From positions 64,001 to 128,000 of IMG/VR virus record IMGVR_UViG_3300046779_001412: a stretch of 64,000 nt of DNA; one strand, 5' to 3'. The translations under genes and the position numbers were made by a program. This DNA is from a virus. This document shows positions 17,845-41,753 of the stretch, piece by piece (within the stretch, counting starts at the first letter, position 1; each line of letters begins with the position of its first letter). The notes beneath the pieces were generated by a model that was given only the letters and a program-made list of their open reading frames with translations, did no database searches and had not been told where the DNA came from.

Positions 17845-18045
17845 TTACATACCGCGTGGAGAGTAATGTTGGATATAGATACAGCGTGCGCTGACTTTGT
17901 AGCCATCTGTGTACCAAGTGGCGCTGACACGAGCACGTTCACGCTGGCAGTCTTCGTAGTTATGTTGTGGGGCCTGTATAATACCTTTGCTCTGTGTTTG
18001 ACCATAGGGCTGTGCAAGATACAAACTGATAACAAGAATCCACAT
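17845..18045 (-). CDS. small hypothetical protein
   Basis: Follows TAAATA; hydrophobic N-terminus. Confidence 0.5.
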   Translation of the reverse strand: MWILVISLYLAQPYGQTQSKGIIQAPQHNYEDCQRERARVSATWYTDGYKVSARCIYIQHYSPRGM

Positions 18046-18062
18046 GTTGATATTTATTAATG

Positions 18063-18085
18063 AAAAAGCCCGCCGAAGCGGGCCT
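18063..18085 (-). terminator. terminator after tmRNA
   Basis: GCCCGC-TTCG-GCGGGC plus U5. Confidence 0.85.
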
Positions 18086-18385
18086 ACTATTTTGGGTGAC
18101 AAGGCATAGTTGCCTCGGAGATTAGGCTGCTAGAGCGAAAATCTCGTCGTTAGCTGCGTTTGCAGTTATCATTTTTCGCTGATTACGTCAGTCGACTCTC
18201 GTGTTGTCCACTCGCCTACTCTTGACCCTGTCGAAACCTTGACTGGCCCATCAGAAACATACTTCGTCCTGCAGTACGGTCCTTTTCACAAAGAGTCGCA
18301 CGGTCTGCAAATATGTTTCTGGTGGACCAGGTGGGAGTCGAACCCACGTCCAGAACCCTTTTTGGGTCGCTTCATACAACAATAC
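18086..18385 (-). ncRNA. ssrA: circularly permuted (two-piece) tmRNA
   Basis: T arm and CTGGTCC-ACCA (3' end 18320) come first, then a spacer, then 5' GGGCCAG (18249) with G3:U70; tag ANAANDEIFALAA* at 18163..18122; outer ends approximate. Confidence 0.92.
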
Positions 18386-18396
18386 AATTATTTATT

Positions 18397-18981
18397 TTAT
18401 AGAACTTGTTGAATTTTGTCAAGTATGATATTGACCACTTGACTGCTGAGTACAACCTCGTAATGATTGAACGGCATTTCAATGATCTCAAAATCATCAC
18501 GATAAAGCATACTCTGTAAAGTAACCACACCATCATTGGGTTCTTTGATCCAGGGACTTTGACCCACTGTGGTTACAATCTGAGTCCAGTTTGGCGGTGA
18601 CGCAATCTTTCTACTGTCCTGCATTGGCGCACTCATGGTACCTATGTCTTTCATTAGTTTATTGAAAGGCAAAAAGTACTTGGCAAAATCTGCTTGTTCA
18701 CTGCCACCATAGGGTGTGCTTAGACTTACGCCACCTCGAGTGGTTTCGCGATAGTGATCCGCGAGAAACAAACTATAAATGCCACCAAGACTGTGACTTA
18801 TAAAGAACAATCTTTCTGCATCATCTAGCCGGCCCATCATGTGCGCTAGATTATGAGCAAAGCCATTTTCGCTGCGATACTCCAGCATGATGTCGGGTTC
18901 TTCGTAGTGATCCCGCACGAACTGACGAATGTAGCTAAAACTCTCCGCAGTGGCGCTGGCACCATGTATGTAAACAATCAT
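18397..18981 (-). CDS. alpha/beta hydrolase (esterase/lipase-like)
   Basis: YIHG, SHSLGG, NDGVV, catalytic His. Confidence 0.85.
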   Translation of the reverse strand: MIVYIHGASATAESFSYIRQFVRDHYEEPDIMLEYRSENGFAHNLAHMMGRLDDAERLFFISHSLGGIYSLFLADHYRETTRGGVSLSTPYGGSEQADFAKYFLPFNKLMKDIGTMSAPMQDSRKIASPPNWTQIVTTVGQSPWIKEPNDGVVTLQSMLYRDDFEIIEMPFNHYEVVLSSQVVNIILDKIQQVL

Positions 18982-26951: not shown

Positions 26952-27935
26952 ATGAATATGACTTATGACTTTGCAATAAAATTCTATGAATGTCAACCAC
27001 TTGAGGTGAAATTAATAGACACACCACTTGCTCAACGCTATCTTGCTTTGCTCTATAGAAACTATTGTGTTGAACCACCAGTGGTACGTGATCAAGGCGC
27101 ATTTGATCAACAGCGCCTGCAAGAGCTAGCCAATCAGTGTAGGAAAATATTTGGCTGGAATTGGGTGCATCAAGACTACACAGATCTTGCTGTGACAACT
27201 CGTATGCACAAAGATATTGAGCAGTATCTTGCACAAGGCTACAATCGCGTAGCCCCTGGTCATGATGAACTATTACATGAACTCCATATCTGTCTCCACA
27301 GTGTGCAGTATAACAGTGAACGCACCACAATGCAACTGGAATGGTTTAACGATGATCAATTTCCAATTCAGCCAGGTGAACTAGATTTTGTACATGACAA
27401 CACTCTAGGAGCCATACTGCTACAAAATGCCTATGTAGGTCATCCGCCTATGTGGTTATTTCAACAAAATGATCATATCAATGTATGGCAAACCTGTAGG
27501 TTTCATGATATAGTAAAACCCGGAATCGTAATCCAGATGCAGGGCAGCACAGAAATCTTACCACAAGAATTTGAACAAGCAGATCTATATTTGAACTGGT
27601 GGCGAACAGTGGCTCCGGATTTTGTTAATTATCATAGCGAGAAAAAACTACTAGACAACGCAGGCAAACCAGTGATTGGTTATGTTATCAATCGCGAATA
27701 CCTTTACAGCCTGCTAACCAAATCTAGATTTGAGCTTGAATATATTGAATTCACAGAGCAAGCTAGATTAATTGCATCAACCTGTATCTTGCCCCCACGA
27801 TTGCCTCTTACCAGACAAGACTACAACAATCTAGCCGGTCCTGATTGGCCCTGTTATGATACCTGGCTTGAAACCCAAGAGCTACCAGAATTTGTAAGAG
27901 CAGAAATATTAGACATGATCGGAGTGCAAGTGTAA
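26952..27935 (+). CDS. hypothetical protein
   Basis: 327 aa ORF directly after TAAATA. Confidence 0.7.
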   Translation: MNMTYDFAIKFYECQPLEVKLIDTPLAQRYLALLYRNYCVEPPVVRDQGAFDQQRLQELANQCRKIFGWNWVHQDYTDLAVTTRMHKDIEQYLAQGYNRVAPGHDELLHELHICLHSVQYNSERTTMQLEWFNDDQFPIQPGELDFVHDNTLGAILLQNAYVGHPPMWLFQQNDHINVWQTCRFHDIVKPGIVIQMQGSTEILPQEFEQADLYLNWWRTVAPDFVNYHSEKKLLDNAGKPVIGYVINREYLYSLLTKSRFELEYIEFTEQARLIASTCILPPRLPLTRQDYNNLAGPDWPCYDTWLETQELPEFVRAEILDMIGVQV

Positions 27936-28054
27936 AAATCATGATTATCACGATGCGCTATTACGCAATTCACACATGTAACTCTGGCATTTATCTCATA
28001 CAATAGAACTACATACTAATGCAGTATGTTAATTTTTAATCAAGGAGAACTAAC

Positions 28055-28129
28055 ATGGCATGGACTACACCTTCAGCACAAGATATGCGTTTTGGTTTTG
28101 AAATCACCATGTATATCGCTAATCGCTAA
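28055..28129 (+). CDS. pqqA: pyrroloquinoline quinone precursor peptide PqqA
   Basis: MAWTTPSAQDMRFGFEITMYIANR with ExxxY; AAGGAG RBS; downstream terminator. Confidence 0.93.
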   Translation: MAWTTPSAQDMRFGFEITMYIANR

Positions 28130-28149
28130 TCGTTGTTAGTGATTAAATC

Positions 28150-28171
28150 AACCCGCTTCGGCGGGTTTTTT
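28150..28171 (+). terminator. terminator after pqqA
   Basis: AACCCGC-TTCG-GCGGGTT plus U tract. Confidence 0.85.
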
Positions 28172-28173
28172 AT

Positions 28174-28251
28174 TGGTACCCCCACTCCGATTCGAACGGA
28201 GAAAACTGCTCCTTTTGAGAGAGCCGACTTTGCCAATTTGTCTATGGGGGT
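28174..28251 (-). tRNA. tRNA-Leu(CAA)
   Basis: Cloverleaf, loop CTCAAAA, encoded CCA. Confidence 0.9.
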
Positions 28252-28309
28252 TTAATAATTTTTCCCACTTACTCTTATGTCTTACGTATTATTTTCATTT
28301 TTAACTCCT

Positions 28310-28386
28310 TGGTACGGATGGAGGGATTCGAACCCTCAAAACTCGGATTTTAAATCCGATACGTATACCTGTTCCGTCACATCCGC
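28310..28386 (-). tRNA. tRNA-Leu(TAA)
   Basis: Loop TTTAAAA, CCA. Confidence 0.9.
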
Positions 28387-28397
28387 TAAGTAACCTT

Positions 28398-29420
28398 GTG
28401 TTAACACTGGATCAAATTCAACAAATACATGTGGAGCTTACAACTAGATGCAATGCTCGTTGTCCAATGTGTCTACGAAATTTTAGAGGATCTGATTATA
28501 ATTCAGGATATCCTCTAACCGAACTAACTTTAGATCAATTCCAAAAGATCTTTACACCTAATATTATCAAGCAATTGTCACGTGGTGTAAATTTCAATGG
28601 CAATCTTGGCGACTTTGGTCTGGCTCGCGACGCATTAGAAATTACTGATTATGTTGTCACGCAGCAAGTACCTGTGCACATCAACACCAATGGTAGTATG
28701 CGATCGCCAGACTGGTGGGCACAACTAGCTCGCCCAGGTGTGAGTGTGGCCTGGGCTTTGGATGGACTTGAGGACACACATCATTTCCATCGTCAAGACA
28801 CAGATTGGCATCGAGTAATTGAACATGCTCGGGCATTTATTGCTGCTGGTGGTCGTGCAATTTGGAAGTTTATCAAATTCAAACATAATCAACATCAAAT
28901 CGCACAGTGTCGCGAGCTGGCACGTGAATTTGGATTTGCTGCGTTTGATCTTGTAAATCAAGGTAGAGATCAAAGTCCGGTGTTTTCTCGTACAGGAGAA
29001 TTCAGTCATTGGATTGGTGATCCCTGGACAGAGGACGAGCCTGAAGTGCAGTCCATGTTAACCAGCATGATTCACTGGTATGATTCTAATAGTACGTGTC
29101 ATCCTCAAGACGTCGCAGATCTACAACTAAACTGCGTGCATCTTACCACACGCGAAATCTATGTTGCGGCTGATGGCACTGTGTATCCTTGTTGCTTTCT
29201 TGGATTTTATCCGCACAGCATGAAACACGCAGATAATCATCGTGTGCGTGGCTTAATATATGAAAACAATGCATTGGAACACGGGTTAGAACATGCAATG
29301 CAATGGTTTGATCGTGTGCAGCACACCTGGAAACTGCCCAATGTGGCACAGGGTAGATTGTACACCTGTGTAAATTCCTGTGCAGCACGCTCTAATGGCG
29401 GGCGTGTGCAACCTCTTTGA
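28398..29420 (+). CDS. radical SAM protein with SPASM/twitch domain
   Basis: CNARCPMC; C..IYVAADGTVYPCC; C-terminal CxxxC. Confidence 0.88.
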   Translation: MLTLDQIQQIHVELTTRCNARCPMCLRNFRGSDYNSGYPLTELTLDQFQKIFTPNIIKQLSRGVNFNGNLGDFGLARDALEITDYVVTQQVPVHINTNGSMRSPDWWAQLARPGVSVAWALDGLEDTHHFHRQDTDWHRVIEHARAFIAAGGRAIWKFIKFKHNQHQIAQCRELAREFGFAAFDLVNQGRDQSPVFSRTGEFSHWIGDPWTEDEPEVQSMLTSMIHWYDSNSTCHPQDVADLQLNCVHLTTREIYVAADGTVYPCCFLGFYPHSMKHADNHRVRGLIYENNALEHGLEHAMQWFDRVQHTWKLPNVAQGRLYTCVNSCAARSNGGRVQPL

Positions 29421-29421
29421 A

Positions 29422-29497
29422 TGGTACCCCAGGGGAGAGTCGAACTCCCAAAATTTGGTTTCTAAGACCAACACGTATACCGTTCCGTCACCAGGGC
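29422..29497 (-). tRNA. tRNA-Leu(TAG)
   Basis: Loop CTTAGAA, CCA. Confidence 0.9.
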
Positions 29498-29586
29498 TTA
29501 TTTAATATCTTACCAGACAGCTTAGATACTGTTCAGCCTGGCGTTGTCTATGTTCTATCATAGCAAGTAACACTTGCTGTAGCCAA

Positions 29587-29760
29587 TTATAAATTTTTTT
29601 GCGCACTGTAGGTAAACTCTCTTTCTAGTCTTTCTATGTCTTCCGCACAGCATGGATTTTTGCTGTTGACATACCGTTCAAGGCGACTGGCATAGTCTTG
29701 ACTGGGAAACATTTCAGCCAAACGATCCAATATATGTGTTATAAGTTGCGACATGGTCAT
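29587..29760 (-). CDS. 57-aa hypothetical protein
   Basis: Manual translation; AGGA RBS. Confidence 0.5.
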   Translation of the reverse strand: MTMSQLITHILDRLAEMFPSQDYASRLERYVNSKNPCCAEDIERLEREFTYSAQKNL

Positions 29761-29819
29761 TTCCTTTTTTTATATAGAATATTTATTGCAGTGCACAAAG
29801 AATTCGATATTTCAAGGAA

Positions 29820-29895
29820 TGGTGCCGACTCCTGGTTACGCTCCAGGCTCTCACGCTCTTCAGGCGTATGCTTTCACTAGATTAGCTTAGTCGGC
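29820..29895 (-). tRNA. tRNA-Phe(GAA), atypical T loop
   Basis: Loop CTGAAGA; T loop AGCGTAA. Confidence 0.85.
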
Positions 29896-29922
29896 AAGTG
29901 GTGGCCTGTTTCTGTGATTAAA

Positions 29923-30159
29923 CTAACGGGCCCATGTTAACACAAATATTGATCTATCTTGATCCCATTTGAATGCAACACCTAGTTGATATGAGGATCT
30001 ACTGTCATTCCATGCCCATGTCACATAGTGTTTGCCAACATGGGACTGCAGCCAGGACTCTACAAGGTCTACGCCTTGAATCCAGTCCAGCTGTGGTACG
30101 ATACCAGCAGGCCACGGTACAGTGGCCGTGTACACAAAAGCATGTCTATCAACCAGCAT
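29923..30159 (-). CDS. small hypothetical protein
   Basis: Ends DRSIFVLTW. Confidence 0.6.
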   Translation of the reverse strand: MLVDRHAFVYTATVPWPAGIVPQLDWIQGVDLVESWLQSHVGKHYVTWAWNDSRSSYQLGVAFKWDQDRSIFVLTWAR

Positions 30160-30171
30160 GCTCTTATTTAA

Positions 30172-30249
30172 TGGTCTCGGTGGAGAGATTCGAACTCCCG
30201 ACCCTCTGCTCCCAAAGCAGATGCGCTACCCAGGCTGCGCTACACCGAG
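30172..30249 (-). tRNA. tRNA-Pro(TGG)
   Basis: Loop TTTGGGA, CCA. Confidence 0.95.
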
Positions 30250-30330
30250 ATTATTGACGATTTATTACATACAGCAATGCCGCCATCATTGCTATAACTA
30301 TGATTGCCCCATGATTGTTCTCCGGTTGTT

Positions 30331-30406
30331 TGGTAGGGGATGAGGGACTCGAACCCCCGCATGGCGGAATCAAAATCCGCTGCCTTACCAGCTTGGCGAA
30401 TCCCCA
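30331..30406 (-). tRNA. tRNA-Gln(TTG)
   Basis: Loop TTTTGAT, CCA. Confidence 0.93.
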
Positions 30407-30412
30407 ACAGTT

Positions 30413-30562
30413 TTAACTTGGTATGATTTTAGGAATATAAGGTACATTCCTGGGACCATGACGTTGCTCAAATAACTGTTTTGCTTCTTGTAGATCTTTC
30501 GCATACACACGATCTTTGACTTCTCCTTGAGTAGTCTTGACTGTGGTTTCATACATTGGCAT
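30413..30562 (-). CDS. small hypothetical protein
   Basis: AAGGAG RBS, between tRNAs. Confidence 0.6.
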   Translation of the reverse strand: MPMYETTVKTTQGEVKDRVYAKDLQEAKQLFEQRHGPRNVPYIPKIIPS

Positions 30563-30580
30563 AACATCTCCTTGGTTACA

Positions 30581-30655
30581 TGGCCCGACCGGCAGGAATC
30601 GAACCCACATTCTGGAGGTAGAAGCTCCATGTCCTATCCATTGAACGACGGTCGG
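30581..30655 (-). tRNA. tRNA-Arg(TCT)
   Basis: Loop CTTCTAC, CCA. Confidence 0.9.
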
Positions 30656-30661
30656 TAATAC

Positions 30662-30737
30662 TGGAGCGGGAGGCGAGATTCGAACTCGTCTATTTCAGTT
30701 TGGAAGACTGACGTGTAACCGTAAACACTTCACCCGC
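30662..30737 (-). tRNA. tRNA-Gly(TCC)
   Basis: Loop CTTCCAA, U73, CCA. Confidence 0.9.
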
Positions 30738-30743
30738 TTAGAT

Positions 30744-31211
30744 CTATAATGCTCCATTGGCTATTCTATCTGCGGCGTAACTTGCAGCAAACGCCCGAGG
30801 TTTAACCAGGGGAATCACGTTGCAAGTACCTCGAATATAACCAATGGCCTGACTTATCACGCAACTGCTACCATGCTCTTCATTGGGGTTGATATCCAGA
30901 TGTACTTCAACTGGAAAGTCCCCCATTACCGGTGCAAGACGTTGAAACATTTCGCTCACACGATAAACTTCATTCATCAACCTCATGGCCGGCTTGTTTA
31001 ATTTGTGATCATAATCACGTTCTCTAGTTATTTCACCAAAAATTTTACAGCCGTTGTTGCCATTGATGTGAATTACCACAGCTACAGTGTATTCAGCATA
31101 CCATATGCCTTTTTCACGATAACGAATGCTGTCTGCACCTAGATAGACTTTTGTACCAGTGCCACAGGCATCTACAAATTGTTTGATTTGGTCTACATTG
31201 ATACGTGGCAC
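30744..31211 (-). CDS. RNase H-like YkuK/DUF458 family protein
   Basis: YLGADS, RLMNEV, EVHLDIN, ASYAAD. Confidence 0.75.
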   Translation of the reverse strand: MPRINVDQIKQFVDACGTGTKVYLGADSIRYREKGIWYAEYTVAVVIHINGNNGCKIFGEITRERDYDHKLNKPAMRLMNEVYRVSEMFQRLAPVMGDFPVEVHLDINPNEEHGSSCVISQAIGYIRGTCNVIPLVKPRAFAASYAADRIANGAL

Positions 31212-31227
31212 ATTAACTCCTTTAAGT

Positions 31228-31302
31228 TGGCCGGTCCGGAGAGATTCGAACTCCCGACAGCTGGTTTCGAAGACCAGAACTCTTCCGCTGAGCTACGGAC
31301 CG
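31228..31302 (-). tRNA. tRNA-Arg(TCG)
   Basis: Loop CTTCGAA, CCA. Confidence 0.9.
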
Positions 31303-31308
31303 ATTGTA

Positions 31309-31380
31309 TGGCGGGCCTTTGCAGGAATTGAACCTACTACTCTATCCTTTGGAGGGATACGAGATCGCCAGAGTAGACCC
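31309..31380 (-). tRNA. degenerate tRNA-Trp(CCA)-like RNA without a paired D arm
   Basis: Anticodon arm TATCC-CTCCAAA-GGATA, T arm and GCCA end present; D region unpaired. Confidence 0.55.
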
Positions 31381-31388
31381 ATAAAACT

Positions 31389-31476
31389 TGGCGGAGAGTA
31401 TAGGATTCGAACCTATGCGCCACTTTCGCAACGACAGTTTAGCAAACTGCTGCCTTAACCACTCGGCCAACTCTCC
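31389..31476 (-). tRNA. tRNA-Ser(GCT)
   Basis: Loop TTGCTAA, long variable arm. Confidence 0.95.
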
Positions 31477-31483
31477 ATGTTAC

Positions 31484-31512
31484 ATTATACCTAGATTGGT
31501 ATTTTATGTCAA
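31484..31512 (-). promoter_or_regulatory. consensus sigma70 promoter inside tRNA array
   Basis: TTGACA-17-TATAAT. Confidence 0.85.
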
Positions 31513-31520
31513 AGGTTATT

Positions 31521-31594
31521 TGGTGCCCCTTGACAGAATCGAACTGCCAATCCCGGATTACAAAACCGGTGTTATGCCATTTAACTAAAGGGGC
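31521..31594 (-). tRNA. tRNA-Thr(TGT)
   Basis: Loop TTTGTAA, CCA. Confidence 0.88.
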
Positions 31595-31732
31595 TCTTGG
31601 TCCTCTTGATCTGGTATATGTGGTACACGTTGTGCCAACCACATCCAATACCAGATCAATGGGATACAACATATAAAAAATAAAAATGGGCGCATTCTTT
31701 TAGTTAGTATGCACTGTTATTTTGGAAATATT

Positions 31733-31822
31733 TGGCGGAAGCGGTGAGATTCGAACTCACGGTACCTTTCGATACGTCTGTTTTCAAGACAGGTGCAATC
31801 AACCGGACTCTGCCACACTTCC
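31733..31822 (-). tRNA. tRNA-Ser(TGA)
   Basis: Loop CTTGAAA, long variable arm. Confidence 0.93.
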
Positions 31823-31827
31823 ATCAC

Positions 31828-31901
31828 TGGTGCTCCCAACTGGTAACGATCCAGTGTCGCTACATTACCAATGTAGTGTAATGCCTTTATACTATAGGAG
31901 C
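31828..31901 (-). tRNA. tRNA-Thr(GGT)
   Basis: Loop TTGGTAA; T loop ATCGTTA. Confidence 0.88.
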
Positions 31902-31902
31902 T

Positions 31903-31980
31903 TGGTAGCGATGGAGGGATTCGAGCCCCCGATCTTCCGCGTATGAAGCGGCTGCATTGAACCAACTATGCTACATCGCT
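31903..31980 (-). tRNA. tRNA-Met or Ile2 (CAT)
   Basis: Loop TTCATAC, fully paired acceptor stem. Confidence 0.85.
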
Positions 31981-31986
31981 GTTGTA

Positions 31987-32060
31987 TGGTAGTCAGTACT
32001 GGTAACGATCCAGTGTCTCACGGTTATCAGCCGTGTGCTCTGCCCTTGAGCTAACCGACT
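31987..32060 (-). tRNA. tRNA-Ile(GAT)
   Basis: Loop CTGATAA; T loop ATCGTTA. Confidence 0.9.
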
Positions 32061-32062
32061 AT

Positions 32063-32136
32063 TGGCTCCGGTGGAGGGAATCGAACCCCCACTAACGGTT
32101 TTGGAGACCGCCGCGCTGCCATTACACCACACCGGA
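32063..32136 (-). tRNA. tRNA-Trp(CCA)
   Basis: Loop CTCCAAA, G73. Confidence 0.92.
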
Positions 32137-32144
32137 ATAACTTT

Positions 32145-32222
32145 TGGAGCATCGGGCTGGATTTGAACCAGCGAATCGAGAGTTTTGCAGACTCCGCCAT
32201 TGGGCCGCTCTGGTACCGATGC
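32145..32222 (-). tRNA. tRNA-Cys(GCA)
   Basis: Loop CTGCAAA, U73. Confidence 0.9.
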
Positions 32223-32225
32223 ATA

Positions 32226-32516
32226 TTAATCTTCTTCGTCAAACTCACCTGAGTTATGACAATAGCCTTTCAATGTACCTATAACCAAGTCTTGGTCGGA
32301 TACCACAAACACATTGTATTCTGCACGACGAAACGGATTCATTCTAGGTATGTCTCTACGTGCGTCAGTGTCAAATGGCAAAGGTTCAACTTTGACATTA
32401 CCTGAATGCTCGTATGTCTCTGCTACACGCCCTATGATAATTCTGTTGTTATGGCAGGTTAATACAGTGGAACCTGTTTTAATTGTTGTTCCTAAAATAT
32501 CTTTTAAGCCTGTCAC
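32226..32516 (-). CDS. hypothetical protein
   Basis: GTG start after GGAGG, between tRNAs. Confidence 0.6.
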   Translation of the reverse strand: MTGLKDILGTTIKTGSTVLTCHNNRIIIGRVAETYEHSGNVKVEPLPFDTDARRDIPRMNPFRRAEYNVFVVSDQDLVIGTLKGYCHNSGEFDEED

Positions 32517-32544
32517 AAACCCTCCATTAAAGTTTTGGCTACGT

Positions 32545-32618
32545 TGGGGTGAAGTGGGGAATCGAACCCTCTCTGACTGTTTCACAGACAGCCGTGCAGC
32601 CATTACACTAACAACACC
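32545..32618 (-). tRNA. tRNA-His(GTG)
   Basis: Loop CTGTGAA, G-1/C73. Confidence 0.85.
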
Positions 32619-32619
32619 A

Positions 32620-32874
32620 TTAAGTTTTGTCAAGTGGAATTTCTTCCACTGGATCAGTCATAATTGATTCTACTACAAACACATCAAACACAGCGTCATC
32701 TTCGGGATGACAAATTTCTTCTAGGAATTTGTGTCCAAATTTGGTACGCCAGTGAATAAAACGTTGCTTGTGGCTATCCCACCGTGCCACACTGGCATTA
32801 CGACAACTGCCATTATAGTACAAACCGTGTTCAAGGTCAACCTTGGCAATTTTGGGTGTATAATCTGTTAACAC
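32620..32874 (-). CDS. hypothetical protein
   Basis: AGGAG RBS. Confidence 0.65.
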   Translation of the reverse strand: MLTDYTPKIAKVDLEHGLYYNGSCRNASVARWDSHKQRFIHWRTKFGHKFLEEICHPEDDAVFDVFVVESIMTDPVEEIPLDKT

Positions 32875-32891
32875 TGCTAACTCCTAATAGT

Positions 32892-32966
32892 TGGTGGACC
32901 GACGGGGAGTCAAACCCCGACTTCTCGGGTGCAAACCGAGTGTGCTCTCGCTATCACTATCAGCCC
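32892..32966 (-). tRNA. tRNA-Ala(TGC)
   Basis: Loop TTTGCAC, G3:U70. Confidence 0.9.
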
Positions 32967-32972
32967 TGATAT

Positions 32973-33051
32973 TGGCTCCGCATTAGAGAATCGAACTCTA
33001 CTAGCCAGTGATTAACAGTCACGCCCATGCACCTTGCTCGGGTTCTGCGGA
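32973..33051 (-). tRNA. tRNA-Asn(GTT)
   Basis: Loop CTGTTAA. Confidence 0.88.
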
Positions 33052-33058
33052 ATTGGTT

Positions 33059-33151
33059 TGGTGGGTGTCCACGGATTTGAACCGCGAATGTTTACCACGA
33101 GGGACCGATTTTACAGACCGGTGTAGCACACGCCATAGCTACAAGACACCC
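33059..33151 (-). tRNA. tRNA-Tyr(GTA)
   Basis: Loop CTGTAAA, long variable region. Confidence 0.85.
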
Positions 33152-33154
33152 AAT

Positions 33155-33406
33155 TTAATTTTGATTTAGATCTTTGGCATCCACACAGGTGCCACCTTTG
33201 AAAACGTAGATATCGCTGTCTACGCGAATTTGTTCAAACACATGATTGTTCACACACACGTAAGGATCTTTGTGATTTTGCACAGCATAGTACACGCCAA
33301 ATCCTATGCCTGCCAGCAACATTATCACAGGCAGGTATTTCAAATACTTGACTATTTCGGGCAGCGCACTGAGAATCTGCGGAAGATTTTTAAGCAATTC
33401 CTTCAT
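33155..33406 (-). CDS. small membrane protein
   Basis: One TM segment; follows TAAATA. Confidence 0.6.
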   Translation of the reverse strand: MKELLKNLPQILSALPEIVKYLKYLPVIMLLAGIGFGVYYAVQNHKDPYVCVNNHVFEQIRVDSDIYVFKGGTCVDAKDLNQN

Positions 33407-33435
33407 GACTGTATTTACGTCAGTGCCTGCTGATC

Positions 33436-33510
33436 TGGCGGTCCCAAGGGGTAACGATCCCCTTCTTTCAGCGTGACAGGCTGATGTGCGTCCATGAACA
33501 CTTTAGAACC
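33436..33510 (-). tRNA. tRNA-Asp(GTC)
   Basis: Loop CTGTCAC; T loop ATCGTTA. Confidence 0.88.
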
Positions 33511-33522
33511 AGATTTTATAGG

Positions 33523-33660
33523 TAAGCGCCGAGAGAATGTCAATTTAGACGTCCTGCGCTAACAGTGTCAAAGCCGAGACCAGTTATATTAGGACTCGTC
33601 CCCGGCCGGGAGAGCCCGAATAGTGTGTGCGTCCACACACGATACCTGTATCGACGCTTA
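33523..33660 (-). ncRNA. candidate structured ncRNA
   Basis: Closing stem TAAGCGTCGA/TCGGCGCTTA; internal GTGTGTG/CACACAC hairpin. Confidence 0.5.
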
Positions 33661-33678
33661 ACTATAAAATCTAATAAA

Positions 33679-33829
33679 TGCTCTGCGACCCCTGGCGGTA
33701 ATTATACCGTATTGCTACGGCCTCCACCCGCTCCACAACAGGGTCCGTTCTCGCATTGCCAGCGCACTTTCGGTTTAAAGTGTACCACCCGTGCTTGTCA
33801 AGGCACTTCTCATCCTCCGGGTCAGAGTA
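33679..33829 (-). ncRNA. candidate structured ncRNA
   Basis: Closing CTCTG-ACCC/GGGT-CAGAG; CCGTA-GCAA-TACGG; CACTTT/AAAGTG. Confidence 0.5.
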
Positions 33830-33971
33830 TCCAGTGACGCTGGAACGTTCTTTATGGTAGTTGGTCGCTACGCCAACTTTTGCTTTCACAAGGATACCTT
33901 TACAGGTTTCGCATTATAGGTTATTTCAGCGCACAGCGAATTTCTTCACTAAACCCAAACCTTGCTACATT

Positions 33972-34036
33972 ACCATATTGAAACACACTATGCCACGCTC
34001 TGAACCTGGACTCTTAGTAATGTGTTTTAATATGGT
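33972..34036 (-). repeat. constant-stem hairpin, copy A (tRNA-Glu trailer)
   Basis: ACCATATTAAAACACAT...AGTGTGTTTCAATATGGT. Confidence 0.8.
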
Positions 34037-34107
34037 ACACGGTAGGGGAATCGAACCCCTCTTCCATCCGTGAAAGGGATGTGTCCTAACCGATAGACGA
34101 ACCGTGC
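34033..34107 (-). tRNA. tRNA-Glu(TTC)
   Basis: Loop CTTTCAC, CCA. Confidence 0.93.
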
Positions 34108-34109
34108 AT

Positions 34110-34476
34110 AAAATCTTGAAGGTTCCTATAAAGCCCATCGTCACCTACAACCATTGGGTAGTTTCCTACCATCTGATCTAATGCTAACAAGGAACTGACT
34201 GTTACATGATGCTGAAGTCATATTACTGCATCAAACCCTTGCTGAACCCTTGCGGGACGATTCGCACTTGATCGTTTTACTCAAAATATTGAATCAGCTA
34301 CTTGTTTTCCATGCAAGCCCTGAAACCGAGTTGTTACCCTGTCCATCCCTTTTATTCTGTGTCTGTGTGCAGAGGGATACTGCCTATCAGAGTCTGGGTT
34401 ACCCCGCTAACGGTTTTCTGCCACCGGATCTCTATCGCTAATCAAACGCTACTTTCAGGAAAGTAGTAACCGGAAC
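34110..34476 (-). ncRNA. candidate large structured ncRNA(s)
   Basis: No credible ORF; three GNRA-capped hairpins on the minus strand. Confidence 0.5.
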
Positions 34477-34553
34477 TGGTTGCGGGAAACAGGAATCGAA
34501 CCTGATGTCTTTGGCTTATGAGACCAACGAGTAAACCGTTTCTCCCTCCCGCC
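34477..34553 (-). tRNA. tRNA-Met(CAT), initiator-like
   Basis: Loop CTCATAA; 1:72 mismatch with A72/A73. Confidence 0.85.
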
Positions 34554-34572
34554 GCTGTATTGTATTTTGTCT

Positions 34573-34601
34573 ATTATAACAAAAAGAATTTTATTGGTCA
34601 A
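34573..34601 (-). promoter_or_regulatory. sigma70-type promoter
   Basis: TTGACC-17-TATAAT. Confidence 0.8.
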
Positions 34602-34676
34602 CCATATAGAAACACACTATCCTAGATAACCTCTTTGGGACGGACTTTAACCGTTCGAAATGTGTTTTTATATGGT
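34601..34676 (-). repeat. constant-stem hairpin, copy B (tRNA-Lys trailer)
   Basis: ACCATATAAAAACACAT...AGTGTGTTTCTATATGGT. Confidence 0.8.
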
Positions 34677-34749
34677 AGGTGCGGTGAGACTTGAACTCAC
34701 AACTTATCGGTTAAAAGCCGATTACTCTAGCCAGTTGAGTTACGCACCC
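34673..34749 (-). tRNA. tRNA-Lys(TTT)
   Basis: Loop CTTTTAA, CCA. Confidence 0.95.
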
Positions 34750-34781
34750 TTCATCTTGCCACTATCCATAACAGGATCTCC

Positions 34782-35006
34782 TTATTTGTTTTTTTGAAAG
34801 TACTCTTCAGCCAGTGCATCTTCTGCTAGTTCTCTAGCACGACGCTGTTCTTGCGTTTCTTCTGTTTCTAATTGTTCATTCATTTGTTTAATGTTTGACA
34901 CAATATGTTCTTTGCTGCTTACTTCACCACGTAACTTAGCCAATTCTCGTTCGTATCTGGCCACAAGACCTGGTGTTACGTGTTTTTTTATCCATTCTGT
35001 AGTCAT
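34782..35006 (-). CDS. hypothetical coiled-coil protein
   Basis: AGGAG RBS. Confidence 0.65.
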   Translation of the reverse strand: MTTEWIKKHVTPGLVARYERELAKLRGEVSSKEHIVSNIKQMNEQLETEETQEQRRARELAEDALAEEYFQKNK

Positions 35007-35043
35007 AATTAATCTCCTGCTAGATGGGATTCTTGGATTCTAA

Positions 35044-35115
35044 ACCATATTGAAACACACTACTCTCTTTGTGGTCGCCGCCGCGGAACGGCATCGCAAT
35101 GTGTTTCAATATGGT
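35044..35115 (-). repeat. constant-stem hairpin, copy C (directly after a promoter)
   Basis: ACCATATTGAAACACAT...AGTGTGTTTCAATATGGT. Confidence 0.8.
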
Positions 35116-35127
35116 CCCAATATTGAT

Positions 35128-35156
35128 ATTGTAAGACAATCACAAATATTGGTCAA
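35128..35156 (-). promoter_or_regulatory. sigma70-type promoter
   Basis: TTGACC-17-TACAAT. Confidence 0.7.
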
Positions 35157-35289
35157 CCATATGTTGGGATCAACACCCCAACCAGGAGTCTTACCATCTG
35201 CGTTGCCGCCACAGATTTCATGTGTCCTGTCCGCCCGTTTGTGATTTTTAATGAATCACTGGTCCTCGTTACCTTAAACATCTTGACAA

Positions 35290-35448
35290 TTACAAATTAA
35301 CTATTCTAGCCTCTTGTACTTGTCTAAATCCTTGTTGCATTAGCTTGGCACGCTCGAACTTAGCTTCGATCAACTTGGCCAAATCTTCTGCTGTTAAAAC
35401 ATGCTCCTTAAGCTGATGCAAACTTTTTTCATCTCTATTTTCTTTCAT
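35290..35448 (-). CDS. 52-aa hypothetical protein, first gene after the attenuator
   Basis: Manual translation MKENRDEKSL...; AAGG RBS. Confidence 0.55.
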   Translation of the reverse strand: MKENRDEKSLHQLKEHVLTAEDLAKLIEAKFERAKLMQQGFRQVQEARIVNL

Positions 35449-35464
35449 AATACCTTATAAAAAC

Positions 35465-35537
35465 AAAAAACCCTGGAGTTTTCACTTCCAGGGTCTAGTA
35501 GATTGATATTGCTTGATGCTTGATCTACTCAGACCCT
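35465..35537 (-). terminator. attenuator: terminator 35465..35494 overlapping antiterminator 35490..35537
   Basis: ACCCTGGA/TCCAGGGT plus U tract competes with AGGGTCT-G-AGTAGAT/ATCTACT-AGACCCT for ACCCT. Confidence 0.75.
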
Positions 35538-35650
35538 CTGCTATCACTATTCTCGATCGCACGGGGATATCCAAACTGGAGCCATGTAGGTAGGCCTACC
35601 AACGTTGAACATTTGTGCATCTGAGATAATGAAAGTTTTGTAGTCATCAT
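35525..35650 (-). CDS. putative leader peptide (41 aa, all 20 amino acids)
   Basis: MMTTKLSLSQMHKCSTLVGLPTWLQFGYPRAIENSDSRGSE*; stop lies in the antiterminator 5' arm. Confidence 0.7.
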   Translation of the reverse strand: MMTTKLSLSQMHKCSTLVGLPTWLQFGYPRAIENSDSRGSE

Positions 35651-35657
35651 AGTGTGT

Positions 35658-35686
35658 ATTTTACATTTTTATTTATACTAGGTCAA
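35658..35686 (-). promoter_or_regulatory. sigma70 promoter with embedded TATAAATA, giving a leaderless uORF transcript
   Basis: TTGACC-17-TAAAAT, then 7 nt, then ATG. Confidence 0.75.
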
Positions 35687-35738
35687 TTGGTATTTTGGTT
35701 ATTTTTTTCTTAATTTTACCAAAAATCTTGTTACTTTG

Positions 35739-36101
35739 TTAACTTTTTGGCAATCCATCTACATAACGACCAAGATCACCATACAGTGCCATCATCATGG
35801 CTTCTTTGCTGCCAAAAAACGTAATACGGCGTCTGCGATCCAGATGATAGGGCCATTCCTGACCTCGATCTAATCTCAACAGCATGCCCTGACTGATCAT
35901 CTGATCTCTGGGTATTACAAACTCATGACATTCTATTTCGGCTAGATCTTGAAATATCACCAACCCACGATCAGTTAGTGCCAAGCCTCCCCTGGGCCTA
36001 ATGTTACGCCACCAGGTATGCATCGCAGTATCTAGGCTCACACGATGCTGCTCGGGCAGAAGCTCTAGGATTTTTTTGGTAATGTCAGCTTTGCGATTCA
36101 C
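35739..36101 (-). CDS. hypothetical protein
   Basis: Operon ORF, probable GTG start. Confidence 0.6.
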   Translation of the reverse strand: MNRKADITKKILELLPEQHRVSLDTAMHTWWRNIRPRGGLALTDRGLVIFQDLAEIECHEFVIPRDQMISQGMLLRLDRGQEWPYHLDRRRRITFFGSKEAMMMALYGDLGRYVDGLPKS

Positions 36102-36405
36102 TGGCAGTTCCAGTGATTGTGGGATACACCTGATCCCCTGCACGCAGCAAAACCACTGTGAACTTGTTGGTGCGGAATTGTGTATTGAGTTTTTTAGCTA
36201 AATTGATGGCATGGCCCGGATTACTAAAACTAACTTTTTTATATTTTGGGCCAGGAAATTGCTGCAACATGTTGGCTGTTTTTAGATTGATTGGAGCATT
36301 GTCAAAAAACACAGCCCATATTCCTTCACTGGCCAATACCTGCTCTGTACGATATGTATTTTTGTCAGTTAGTTCTACTAGAATTTTTGGCTTTGGTCTA
36401 GACAC
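36085..36405 (-). CDS. hypothetical protein
   Basis: AGGAG RBS after TAAATA. Confidence 0.7.
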   Translation of the reverse strand: MSRPKPKILVELTDKNTYRTEQVLASEGIWAVFFDNAPINLKTANMLQQFPGPKYKKVSFSNPGHAINLAKKLNTQFRTNKFTVVLLRAGDQVYPTITGTASESQS

Positions 36406-36454
36406 AGCATCTCCTTACTTCAGTTCTATATTTATGCCAAAAACCATGTAGTTT

Positions 36455-36661
36455 TTATTTAAAGCCACCGCCAGAAACTTCAATATTAACAACATCTGGT
36501 TCTGTGCTTTTTTGCTCAGCCAACCTCTGTAGTTGCATCAAAAGTTTAGTGATGTCTGCATGTAGATCTCGTGCATCTTGCAGTGGCATCACAAAGTCAC
36601 GGGCCGCGCGACTTTCGTGAGCTTTGAGTCGATCCACAAAGCGATTGATATGCATGCTCAT
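36455..36661 (-). CDS. hypothetical protein
   Basis: ATGA-coupled ORF. Confidence 0.65.
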   Translation of the reverse strand: MSMHINRFVDRLKAHESRAARDFVMPLQDARDLHADITKLLMQLQRLAEQKSTEPDVVNIEVSGGGFK

Positions 36662-37092
36662 TGTGCTTCCTTGTCAGTGTGAAATGGTCCGTGGTATGGA
36701 TAGCGTTGCAGCGTGATTAACTTGGGATTACGTATAACTTGCCAGGTGCGATTTTGCATCACTCGATACCATCCAGCTGCATACCAACTCTTGCTTTTGC
36801 GAGTCTTAGTAAACAGCGGTAGTTGTCGGCGCACTTCATAGATTCCATTGTATGCAGCACATCCAGTATCAAACCCGTGTACTTGATTCTGTGGTTTCTT
36901 GTTGGTCTTTACAGCAGGCTCAAAGTCAATACCTATGCGCTGTTTTATCATGCGGACATTTTTGTAATTCTCCACTTGATCTAGGATTTGTACAGTGAAT
37001 CCATTGGCAGTGGCCTGTATGTTTCCTATCTTTTCATCATCTTGTTTTAAGATCCAAAACCGATCAGGTACCACTGGTTTAGCAATTATCAT
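36658..37092 (-). CDS. hypothetical protein
   Basis: Operon ORF. Confidence 0.7.
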   Translation of the reverse strand: MIIAKPVVPDRFWILKQDDEKIGNIQATANGFTVQILDQVENYKNVRMIKQRIGIDFEPAVKTNKKPQNQVHGFDTGCAAYNGIYEVRRQLPLFTKTRKSKSWYAAGWYRVMQNRTWQVIRNPKLITLQRYPYHGPFHTDKEAQ

Positions 37093-38086
37093 TTAATGTT
37101 CCTGTATATACTGTGTTAAGCCATTGAGCATACTGTTCTGCCTGTTCGCTGATTTTTTGCAGATCGAACTTGCCACAGAATCTCATGAATCTCACGCCCA
37201 CTTGACCTATGTCTTTGTGAGCAATTTGTTCACGTATGGCGGTGTCCACTTTGTGTTTGACATCGTCCGGTTGTGCTGTGAGATCAATTAGTTGTCGGTT
37301 GCGATTGTAGTCATCAAGTACACGGTGCTCACTGCCGTTGTGGTCTGTCCAACGCTGCAACATTAAATTGTTCCAACTATATCCACGAGCGTGTCTATCT
37401 TCAAACGCTTCCATTAATCCTACTTTGTTTTTTGTGCCCTTGGTTCTAACGCCCGGGTAGGCAGAAAACACATTGTCTGATGCATCGCCACGCATGCATT
37501 TTTCAAACAATAACCATTCTGGGTCGGGGATACGTTTAGGTTGTTTTGTTTTTTTATCTACGACTTCGCGACCACGTGCATCAAATATGCCTTCTAGTGT
37601 GATCAATTCATCTTGAATGCCATTGAATTGATTTACATTAGGTGCTATGAGTTGCACAAAATCAGTGTCACTGCTAACGATGGTGTGATGATCTTGGGGA
37701 TGCAGATGTATCCATCTAGCAATAATATCGTCAGCTTCTGCTTCAGGGTGTCGGACTACCGAGCAATTTGTTCCTTGCTCTAGGTATTTAGTAAAGTGAT
37801 CATAGGTTTCCCAAAACACTCGATCTTCTTCGGCTTCAGCTTCGGTTAGAGCAGCTCGTGCAACTGCTCTATTTGCTTTGTATGGCTTGTAGAAATCCTT
37901 CCGCCAGCTGCGTCCTTCAAGTGCGAACAAAACATGATCTGCGTTGAATTTCTTTGCTACTTTGTTGATTGCAGCAAGAGTGATGTGCAGTGCATAGCCT
38001 ACCTTTTCCTCAGTGGAACTGGCTCGATGCGCAACATGTCTAGCCCGGAAAAACATGTTGGCAGTGTCAATCAGCAGATAGTGCAT
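37079..38086 (-). CDS. 5'-3' exonuclease / T4 RNase H-like flap nuclease
   Basis: LIDTAN, YKANR, EADDII, SSDTDF, GDASDN. Confidence 0.92.
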   Translation of the reverse strand: MHYLLIDTANMFFRARHVAHRASSTEEKVGYALHITLAAINKVAKKFNADHVLFALEGRSWRKDFYKPYKANRAVARAALTEAEAEEDRVFWETYDHFTKYLEQGTNCSVVRHPEAEADDIIARWIHLHPQDHHTIVSSDTDFVQLIAPNVNQFNGIQDELITLEGIFDARGREVVDKKTKQPKRIPDPEWLLFEKCMRGDASDNVFSAYPGVRTKGTKNKVGLMEAFEDRHARGYSWNNLMLQRWTDHNGSEHRVLDDYNRNRQLIDLTAQPDDVKHKVDTAIREQIAHKDIGQVGVRFMRFCGKFDLQKISEQAEQYAQWLNTVYTGTLNDNC

Positions 38087-40288: not shown

Positions 40289-41155
40289 TTACGTTCCCCA
40301 TGCATTACGCCATATATCTACTTGCAGTCTTGGACTATATCTCCATCCTCGATCCAATGCAAGCTTTGCCACTTGTTGTGTGTTGAGATTATACACCTGT
40401 GGAACTCCTCCCACAGGCATTAGATACACCGGACAGTTGATGTTGTGTTTGCGATATTCAGCAACAGCACGTTCAGCATCAGCAACATCTTCGTCTGTGG
40501 CCACTACAAATTTCAAATACACTTGTCCATACAGCTGATATTGATGAACCACTTCGGGTTGTATAGCACGTTCAAACGGCTCACCTGAACATGGCAACTT
40601 GGGACTCACACTAAAGGTCAAGTGATCAAAGTCTCGTCCATATCTTGTGAATTCTTGAAACAGATATTCTTCTACTTCAGGATAGAGTTTTTGAGTACCA
40701 TTGGTTTCAAAAGTAATATGCTGAAGTCCATTGGCACGACAGCGATCAATCAGTTCCGGATAAAGTTGTTGATACGCCAGCAGTGGTTCACCACCAGTGA
40801 TAATCAAATGAGACTGATTCCAAACTTTGCCCGGCAGCAAGTCATGTATTTGGCCTGCAATAGTTTCCACATTTTCTTGTTGATTGAAACGCTTGAACTC
40901 AGGATAGATTGATGCATAGGTATCGCACCCTGTGGTAACCAGTGGCAGATCTTCAAACTTTTGATATTGATCTAGATTTTTTAAGATTTCAACTACTTCA
41001 GGATTGTGACCTTCGATGAGTTCGTCACGTGGTCTTCCAAACTTGCGACATCTAAAGTTGCAACCGTATGTACGAAAGAAAATGCTGGGCACACCAGCAT
41101 ACATTCCTTCTCCTTGCAGACTGTAAAAAATTTCAGTATAGGTTATCTTTTCCAT
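40289..41155 (-). CDS. queE: 7-carboxy-7-deazaguanine synthase (radical SAM)
   Basis: EIFYSLQGEG, GCNFRC..GCDTY, TGGEP, ETNGT, SPK. Confidence 0.9.
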   Translation of the reverse strand: MEKITYTEIFYSLQGEGMYAGVPSIFFRTYGCNFRCRKFGRPRDELIEGHNPEVVEILKNLDQYQKFEDLPLVTTGCDTYASIYPEFKRFNQQENVETIAGQIHDLLPGKVWNQSHLIITGGEPLLAYQQLYPELIDRCRANGLQHITFETNGTQKLYPEVEEYLFQEFTRYGRDFDHLTFSVSPKLPCSGEPFERAIQPEVVHQYQLYGQVYLKFVVATDEDVADAERAVAEYRKHNINCPVYLMPVGGVPQVYNLNTQQVAKLALDRGWRYSPRLQVDIWRNAWGT

Positions 41156-41186
41156 GTGTAGATTATACTAGAGTTAAACCGCTGTG

Positions 41187-41753
41187 TCAAATGTTTTGTG
41201 GATCCCACCATTGTTCCCAGGGAAATACCACCCAACTAGGATCTTCGTATTTGTTAATAGTACGGGCACTGTAGTTCATAGTGACTTCGGATTCGCTGCT
41301 GATGTTATCTATCAACACAGCAAATCTAACCGATTGATTCCAAATAGCTCGCCATACGTGTGTTTCATTGGGCATACATCCTGAAGGCCAATCTTTGTGA
41401 ATCCAGTTAAATGTAGCGCCACTGTCGTTGATGTCATCTACAATCAAGATTTTTTTGCGCAGAGCAGGATCAGTCACGGTGCCTGATTCACCGCGTAGAT
41501 CTTGGGATAGATAACCAAATGCATCTTCAGCCATCCAAAGATTGCTTTCGGGCTCAGAACGCTCATCACGCAGGCTTACCTTGAGTGTTTCCATTGGAAT
41601 ATTTAGGTATTGACTGATCATGTTGGCAGGAACTAGGCCACCACGTGTTAGGCCAATTACATAGTCAGGCCTCCAGCTATCTTGATTCATTTGTCGTAGA
41701 ATTTCCAGCACCATACCTTGGACTTCTGTGTCGGATATGTGTATTTTTTTCAT
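41187..41753 (-). CDS. purine phosphoribosyltransferase-like protein
   Basis: RGGLVPA, LIVDDINDSGAT, WVVFPWE. Confidence 0.88.
   Translation of the reverse strand: MKKIHISDTEVQGMVLEILRQMNQDSWRPDYVIGLTRGGLVPANMISQYLNIPMETLKVSLRDERSEPESNLWMAEDAFGYLSQDLRGESGTVTDPALRKKILIVDDINDSGATFNWIHKDWPSGCMPNETHVWRAIWNQSVRFAVLIDNISSESEVTMNYSARTINKYEDPSWVVFPWEQWWDPQNI

Follow-up and report, generated by a model that had tools for sequence, protein, structure and literature searches.

Several described systems couple translation of a short leader, or the state of tRNA, to transcription downstream. In the E. coli attenuators trpL, hisL, pheL, leuL, thrL and ilv, the antiterminator can form when the ribosome stalls earlier in the leader, but not once a ribosome has reached the leader stop codon. 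Antibiotic-responsive leader attenuators of resistance genes respond to a drug, which stalls ribosomes in the leader open reading frame (ORF) and thereby raises downstream transcription. T-box riboswitches bind one uncharged tRNA directly and work without translation. For the PA5471.1 leader of armZ in Pseudomonas aeruginosa, the available part of the source describes how stalling, including that caused by loss of the CCA-adding enzyme (a tRNA defect), raises downstream transcription, and how the leader depends on codons 3-4 (PMC13041342). The trn L-array of Anabaena sp. PCC 7120 comprises more than 20 accessory tRNA genes, which are kept low and induced by impaired translation; in the available parts of two papers its control is ascribed to promoter repeats and the repressor TrcR (PMC8421152, PMC10272220), and the terms "attenuat-", "leader" and "terminator" have no occurrence in PMC8421152. 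A full-text literature search, with supplements outside its scope, found no published account of an attenuator ahead of phage tRNA genes. Here we analysed a 64,000-nucleotide (nt) stretch of viral DNA, hereafter the window, which corresponds to positions 64001-128000 of the 136-kb IMG/VR virus record IMGVR_UViG_3300046779_001412 (CheckV completeness 39%). On its minus strand, at 35465-35686, lies an element that we consider to be, on balance, probably a ribosome-dependent (leader-peptide) transcription attenuator, controlling whether transcripts of one strong promoter reach the gene of a small conserved protein and, beyond it, a phage tRNA array.

In the order of transcription, the element consists of the following parts.

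35658..35686, minus strand: sigma-70-type promoter, TTGACC (35686-35681), a 17-nt spacer and TAAAAT (35663-35658), with 10 of 12 matches in the promoter scan.
35525..35650, minus strand: leader ORF of 41 codons plus TAG (35527-35525), using all 20 amino acids.
35523..35537, minus strand: 5' arm of the putative antiterminator hairpin, AGGGTCTGAGTAGAT, made up of the last four codons, TAG and the next three bases.
35490..35503, minus strand: 3' arm of the same hairpin, ATCTACTAGACCCT, whose final ACCCT (5 nt) also forms the base of the terminator 5' arm.
35459..35495, minus strand: intrinsic terminator, stem (G)ACCCTGGAA / TCCAGGGT(T) at 35495-35470 and a T6GT5 tract at 35470-35459.

A first-pass annotation, made from the letters of the window alone, had proposed this anatomy, which was confirmed. 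Read directly from the minus strand, the promoter TTGACC-17-TAAAAT stands 7 nt before an ATG (at 35650, where the start reads ATGATG), as had been claimed. AGGGTCTGAGTAGAT pairs with ATCTACTAGACCCT through 7+7 bp around one bulged G, which is the described 14-bp pairing over the stop codon, with ACCCT doubling as the terminator 5' arm. Direct reading of the ORF likewise gave 20 amino-acid kinds, ten of them occurring once, and 33 distinct codons; the five Leu codons (CTT, TTA, TTG, CTA, CTC) are all different, and so are the three Gly codons (GGC, GGA, GGG). The terminator, at -17.0 kcal/mol by RNAfold, was missed by a simple terminator scan because its loop is longer than 8 nt. Hairpin and terminator are mutually exclusive by virtue of a 5-nt shared stem.

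In layout, the closest described systems are the trp-type attenuators of E. coli, with which the phage element shares a short ORF (translated, we presume), an intrinsic terminator and a competing upstream hairpin. It differs from them in that no regulatory run of codons for one amino acid is present, the 41 codons covering all 20 kinds instead; in that there are two hairpins, with the stop codon inside the antiterminator arm; in that the leader is probably leaderless and would control phage tRNA genes and a small protein; and in that no Rfam leader family is matched. In signal, it would be closest to PA5471.1/armZ and the antibiotic-responsive leaders, where, as far as the available sources go, the input is ribosome stalling for a general reason; unlike the phage element, those leaders are described there as short, tied to particular codons and placed before cellular efflux or resistance genes rather than a phage tRNA array, and there is no sequence relationship. 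In physiology, the same logic is found in the Anabaena trn L-array, although that array, in the available text, lies on a bacterial plasmid and is controlled at the promoter, whereas the phage element is attenuator-like. As in a T-box, tRNA status would choose between terminator and antiterminator, but Rfam gives no T-box match here. 

In order to follow the element in relatives, we used blastn and nhmmer against loci fetched via neighbouring genes, which gave both close copies, 73-89% identical, and distant ones. A promoter-pattern scan of IMG/VR added at least 120 loci, equivalent to 109 unique sequences; duplicates were collapsed to one representative each before every count, and family counts are among the matches listed. 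Membership was defined by three features in order, namely a 20-55-codon ORF that opens at the ATG, a hairpin of -7 kcal/mol or lower and a T tract, and 65 of the 109 have this arrangement. Locus L153, one of the 65, was judged unrelated and dropped as a non-member along with other Lys-rich 'MKLKK...' ORFs, and L099 and the pattern matches lacking a terminator or a stop (44 of 109) were not counted, save ten internal-start leaders. The family thereby comprises at least 64 distinct variants with a leaderless ORF and at least 10 with an internal start, all on giant-phage contigs of IMG/VR. When 80 loci were gathered via the flap endonuclease gene alone, a covariance model found 12 copies, and the promoter pattern was present in 12 of 12.

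The hairpin over the stop codon is a constant feature of these relatives. In every member, the RNA up to the terminator 3' arm folds as a hairpin of -14 to -30 kcal/mol, spanning the last codons to the terminator 5' arm. The 5' arm starts 8-33 nt before the stop codon (median 14, all 62 members measured), and the stop codon is 26-35 nt from the terminator arm and 49-64 nt from the T tract. The position of the stop codon inside the 5' arm is, as a matter of geometry only, consistent with a ribosome deciding the fold. Compared with dinucleotide shuffles of the upstream part, hairpin energies in the family had a median z of -2.75, with 50 of 63 below -2; in the window z was -2.6, and 4 of 100 dinucleotide shuffles were equally stable. 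The arms differ between lineages and match within each. Native duplexes averaged -16.4 kcal/mol and swapped ones -11.5 kcal/mol, and 0 of 5000 permutations reached the native mean, in a test that ignores relatedness among members. Compensatory pairs within subfamilies were few (2, 0, 2 and 1). For the terminator helix, 95.3% of cells were paired family-wide and 7 of 8 pairs showed compensatory change; 0 of 500 shuffles reached its covariation score, and slid controls paired only 20-63%. The arm swap and the terminator changes together bear out the covarying stems that had been predicted for relatives.

The following folds were calculated for the window.

Complete RNA, minimum-energy fold: terminator plus the upper 7 bp of the hairpin, -24.4 kcal/mol.
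Terminator 3' arm blocked: full hairpin, -18.4 kcal/mol.
RNA blocked up to a point 6-12 nt past the stop codon: terminator alone, -17.0 kcal/mol.

It had been proposed that a ribosome at the stop codon masks the antiterminator, and blocking the stop region did leave only the terminator. Across the family, the minimum-energy fold contained the terminator at 50% or less in 38 of 63 members, where the hairpin wins, and at 80% or more in 23 of 63, where the terminator wins. Over 27000-37000, nothing apart from tRNAs reached the Rfam gathering score, with no leader or T-box match; the sole match inside the element, at 35468-35496, was insignificant and partial (16.3 bits against a gathering score of 88).

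The leader ORF combines a kept frame with a changing product. By construction, frame 0 is open in all distinct leaders (63 of 63). In the same span, frame +1 is open in none and frame +2 in 2 of the 63, and each of the two carries about 3 stops. Locus L004 has a 3-nt insertion, which is in frame; close relatives otherwise hold the frame and end at the same TAG. In eight subfamilies, variable sites at codon positions 1, 2 and 3 numbered 55, 55 and 83, and 78 codon columns altered the amino acid versus 31 with synonymous changes only. The frame is thus maintained, whereas the peptide is weakly constrained and drifts almost without restriction. This agrees with the earlier expectation that relatives would conserve the peptide poorly and retain the ORF and the hairpin geometry. 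Apart from Met1 and a single Trp, the peptide alignment conserves nothing but a Gly-x-Glu close to the C-terminus, which is encoded by the hairpin arm. The leader peptide matched no Pfam or PHROG family.

What the drifting peptides retain is their range of amino acids. As a null we drew 100,000 windows of 41 residues from the 55 long ORFs of the window, with means of 16.5 kinds and 27.3 codons. Against it, 20 kinds in 41 residues had P=0.012 and 33 codons P=0.0125, and a random-codon null with the base composition of the leaders gave P(20)=0.014. In 69 of 71 distinct leaders the number of kinds was above the length-matched null mean, with a mean z of 1.6. The leaders form 10 clusters at 50% identity, and every cluster with members of at least 36 residues reaches 19-20 kinds, the positions of the rare residues moving. 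Under both nulls, a leader of 38-46 residues has a probability of 0.006-0.03 of holding all 20 kinds; since the clusters share ancestry, they are not independent trials. Judged from the sequences compared, the retention of 19-20 kinds at such divergence implies selection.

The start of the leader is kept as well. The 20-nt promoter core is unique in the window, invariant in close relatives and retained in distant ones, and the ATG is fixed at 6-10 nt from the -10 in relatives, including the 12 copies found without the pattern. No Shine-Dalgarno sequence could be read before the leader ATG. We infer from this spacing that transcription would start at or next to the ATG, and the leader start is probably leaderless. 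The same mode appears to be in use elsewhere in the window, as a second gene shows: TTGACA-17-TATAAT (41190-41162) is followed after 6 nt by ATG 41155 of a 288-amino-acid (aa) ORF (40289-41190, minus strand). In some relatives the promoter pattern of the leader is fused leaderless to the flap endonuclease gene (L159:1079, L203:4010). A different arrangement was seen in the ten-member internal-start subfamily (L118, L122, L129, L144, L149, L157, L170, L185, L078 and relatives), where the leaderless ATG opens a mini-ORF of 2-3 codons (e.g. MRQ*), followed by an insert of about 60 nt and then a leader of 45-48 codons ending in the same hairpin; this all-amino-acid leader begins at an internal ATG without a clear ribosome-binding site.

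The genes behind the element are listed below.

35290..35448, minus strand: first gene behind the switch, conserved, 52 aa; a ribosome-binding site, AAGG, precedes the ATG by 5 nt.
28174..34749, minus strand: tRNA array of 24 genes (ARAGORN 23, Rfam 1), the first being tRNA-Lys at 34749.

In most members the gene directly behind the terminator has a ribosome-binding site and encodes a protein of 50-59 aa that carries the motif L-x-x-K-[FIL]-[ED]-R-A. The 52-aa protein of the window has no Pfam or PHROG family, and its relatives are unnamed and close ones only. The tRNA genes follow on the same strand, as the first-pass annotation had stated, but the count is 24 and not 26; the one added by Rfam (29823-29895, minus strand, 43.3 bits) is absent from the ARAGORN list. 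The first tRNA comes 720 nt after the terminator, with four small ORFs and the promoters 35156 and 34601 between. A same-strand tRNA was found 187-1274 nt downstream in 54 of the 65 elements, among the matches listed, and in 10 of the remaining 11 the downstream sequence available extends no further than 1564 nt. The first tRNA spans 15 identities (Lys, Cys, Trp, Tyr, Met, Ser, Glu, Asp, Leu, Gln, Ile, Ala, Arg, Asn and Gly); arrays follow the element in relatives even where the first tRNA differs. On the upstream side, 37 of the 52 members with at least 1.5 kb of sequence have no same-strand tRNA within 3 kb. A lone same-strand tRNA-Met lies 0.7-2.8 kb upstream, outside the gated array, in 14 of these 52, and in L112 a tRNA-Pro and a tRNA-Thr lie just upstream of the element. 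ARAGORN also reported permuted tmRNAs, one in the window at 18031-18412 (minus strand, tag ANAANDEIFALAA) and one at L086:13937-14332 (tag ATAANDEIFALAA).

The phage is uncultured, and the DNA runs containing the stretch are lake and freshwater metagenomes. Its flap endonuclease (37079-38086) shares 48-52% identity with homologues in giant phages, among them PA5oct and the Rak2-like group. The record that holds the window has one copy of the element; in L109 the hairpin-terminator module occurs twice, about 4 kb apart (L109:159-240, L109:4269-4350). Among 50,697 phage records, blastn gave no match in cultured phages for the element or for two distant family members, and covariance model R1 found no credible copy in the five giant phages PA5oct, EJP2, BF, XaC1 and Hallingskeid. 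Weak R1 matches (E 0.001 to 0.5) were rejected, as no tRNA lies nearby and the one inspected is a plain terminator at a gene end.

These features suggest how the element could work. RNA polymerase would start at or next to the ATG, and ribosomes would translate the leader with no 5' untranslated region ahead of it. On emerging from the polymerase, the stop-codon region would pair with a segment 21 nt downstream and so occupy the base of the terminator stem. With no ribosome nearby, the hairpin would hold and transcription would tend to run on. A ribosome keeping pace would reach the TAG and cover the 5' arm, upon which the terminator would form about 55 nt downstream and transcription would end. 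The leader offers one or few codons per amino acid, and slow decoding of any of them would delay the ribosome and favour read-through. A ribosome covers about 12 nt ahead of its A site; for this reason, a delay at any codon up to about codon 34 is expected to keep the hairpin and let transcription continue. One study has reportedly addressed the effect of the spacing between ribosome and terminator on termination. The input of this two-hairpin layout would be the pace of the first ribosome, and as all amino acids are represented, we infer that the signal would be general decoding capacity: the element would raise phage tRNA output when this capacity is low, and shut down when it is sufficient.

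A further step is tentative, and we put it forward as a possibility that falls somewhat short of being probable. The leader may serve as a census of the whole aminoacyl-tRNA pool, in which the loss of any host tRNA, through phage-induced shut-off or anticodon-nuclease defences, would delay the pioneer ribosome, keep the antiterminator closed and send transcription into a near-complete phage tRNA set. Recovered decoding would then close the switch, which would make it a homeostatic, self-measuring counter-defence circuit.

A number of observations weigh against the attenuator. In the window, the terminator state is 6 kcal/mol more stable than the full hairpin and the two share only 5 nt, therefore read-through must rest on the hairpin forming first, that is, on kinetics. 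That the hairpin overlaps the terminator arm is not informative as a statistic and was discarded as such, because 91% of shuffles pair this arm with an upstream segment too. In family-wide alignments (MAFFT and model-fitted), pairing in the hairpin columns reaches only 56-58% of cells, and covariation is weak, at 0.155 versus 0.134 for shuffles in alignment A2, where 6 of 500 were as high; in alignment A3 it was 0.166 versus 0.129, with 0 of 500 as high. These weak counts arise because the helix register differs between subfamilies, and we judged them invalid as a test of the helix and replaced them by the shuffle energies and the arm swap. With regard to codons, the first-pass annotation had singled out their diversity. 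The raw comparison with random 41-codon windows stands at the P value given above, but given the peptide the codon diversity of the window leader is not significant (P=0.13). Likewise in relatives, it is amino-acid diversity that is retained across diverged lineages; synonymous diversity beyond it is weak and adds little (mean z 0.85, 77% of 62 above 0). Short leaders of 27-35 codons, moreover, hold only 14-19 kinds. The tRNAs can also be transcribed, independently of the element, from strong promoters at 35156, 34601, 32840 and 31512; all but 32840 had already been named as a possible bypass, and all are in the promoter scan. The census required the promoter pattern and is for that reason biased to one promoter type. 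Finally, some features are left unexplained. A sensor of any codon does not account for the near-invariant Trp and the frequent Cys, and such a Trp means that the peptide is not fully free. The ORF region (35540-35650 and relatives) is more structured than shuffles (median z -1.59, 55 of 61 below 0), a modest excess for which a simple attenuator does not account; covariation gave it no support, and an upstream pause or anti-antiterminator helix (regions 1:2) could not be demonstrated in it. Nor does a simple attenuator explain the invariant ATAAATA (TATAAATA here) in the promoter spacer (35664-35680, the same place in relatives). This motif resembles a T4 late promoter or a second -10; an operator is another possibility. 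The idea that TATAAATA serves as a general late promoter was rejected, since it has only 2 copies in the 64 kb, versus 2.8 expected by chance.

Some of these features would find a place in other explanations. The spacer is central to the idea that we are dealing with either an ordinary small gene or a small RNA of dual function, about 190 nt long, equipped in both cases with a promoter and terminator of its own. The stop-codon hairpin would then serve RNA stability or a fixed read-through fraction, and ATAAATA, as operator or second -10, would be the real control point. The greater stability of the terminator state in the window would agree with this, as would the invariance of the spacer and its specificity to the leader promoter, the structure of the leader region relative to shuffles, and the precedent of a stress-responsive tRNA array that the available parts of the publications describe as repressor-controlled at its promoter (PMC8421152, PMC10272220). 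We nevertheless regard it as unlikely. The peptide drifts near-neutrally while the frame, the stop position and the complementarity of the arms are kept, as expected if translating matters and the product does not; the leader has no protein-family match; and the element sits before tRNAs in most members. An untranslated structured RNA leader, riboswitch-like or protein-binding, with an incidental ORF, would be in keeping with the missing Shine-Dalgarno sequence and with leader translation that is itself only presumed. It seems to us very improbable in view of a frame that is open in all distinct leaders where the other frames have about 3 stops each, of an ATG fixed after the -10 even in the 12 pattern-independent copies, of the lack of an Rfam match, and of the finding that compensatory pairs inside the ORF numbered 0 in two subfamilies.

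The conserved Trp speaks for yet another possibility, a specific sensor. The regulatory position would be this codon, which lies some 63 nt into the leader with Cys nearby: its slow decoding could report the supply of Trp-tRNA or Cys-tRNA, or it could belong to a motif that arrests the nascent peptide in the manner of TnaC or SecM, and the other residues would be filler. Trp and Cys each occur in 99% of 71 leaders, versus 55% and 47% of null windows; Trp is the sole conserved column outside the RNA-constrained C-terminus, and it lies at an almost constant distance from the ATG (median 63 nt). In one subfamily, too, the switch is followed first by tRNAs for Trp or Cys, but this holds for a minority of members overall. 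Moreover, there is a single Trp codon and no run, and the distance from Trp to the stop codon ranges over 12-129 nt, so that fixed tunnel geometry is absent and the TnaC-type spacing that we looked for was not found. A specific sensor would also leave the 19-20 kinds in leaders of at least 36 residues unexplained, and we hold it to be distinctly unlikely. A leader-peptide attenuator remains the interpretation that the comparative evidence supports, every comparative prediction of the first-pass annotation having been borne out in the sequences of relatives.

Why phages carry large tRNA sets, and how these are deployed, is an open question, and recent work, in the parts available, ties phage tRNAs to escape from tRNA-cleaving defences. 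If the pool-census reading is true, the leader would be the first known attenuator controlling tRNA genes, and would widen leader-peptide attenuation from sensing a single amino acid to sensing the whole pool. It would also supply a reporter of translation capacity in a compact form, at about 230 nt. For the phages themselves, a conserved decoding-speed switch before the array would give a mechanism for the timing of tRNA production.

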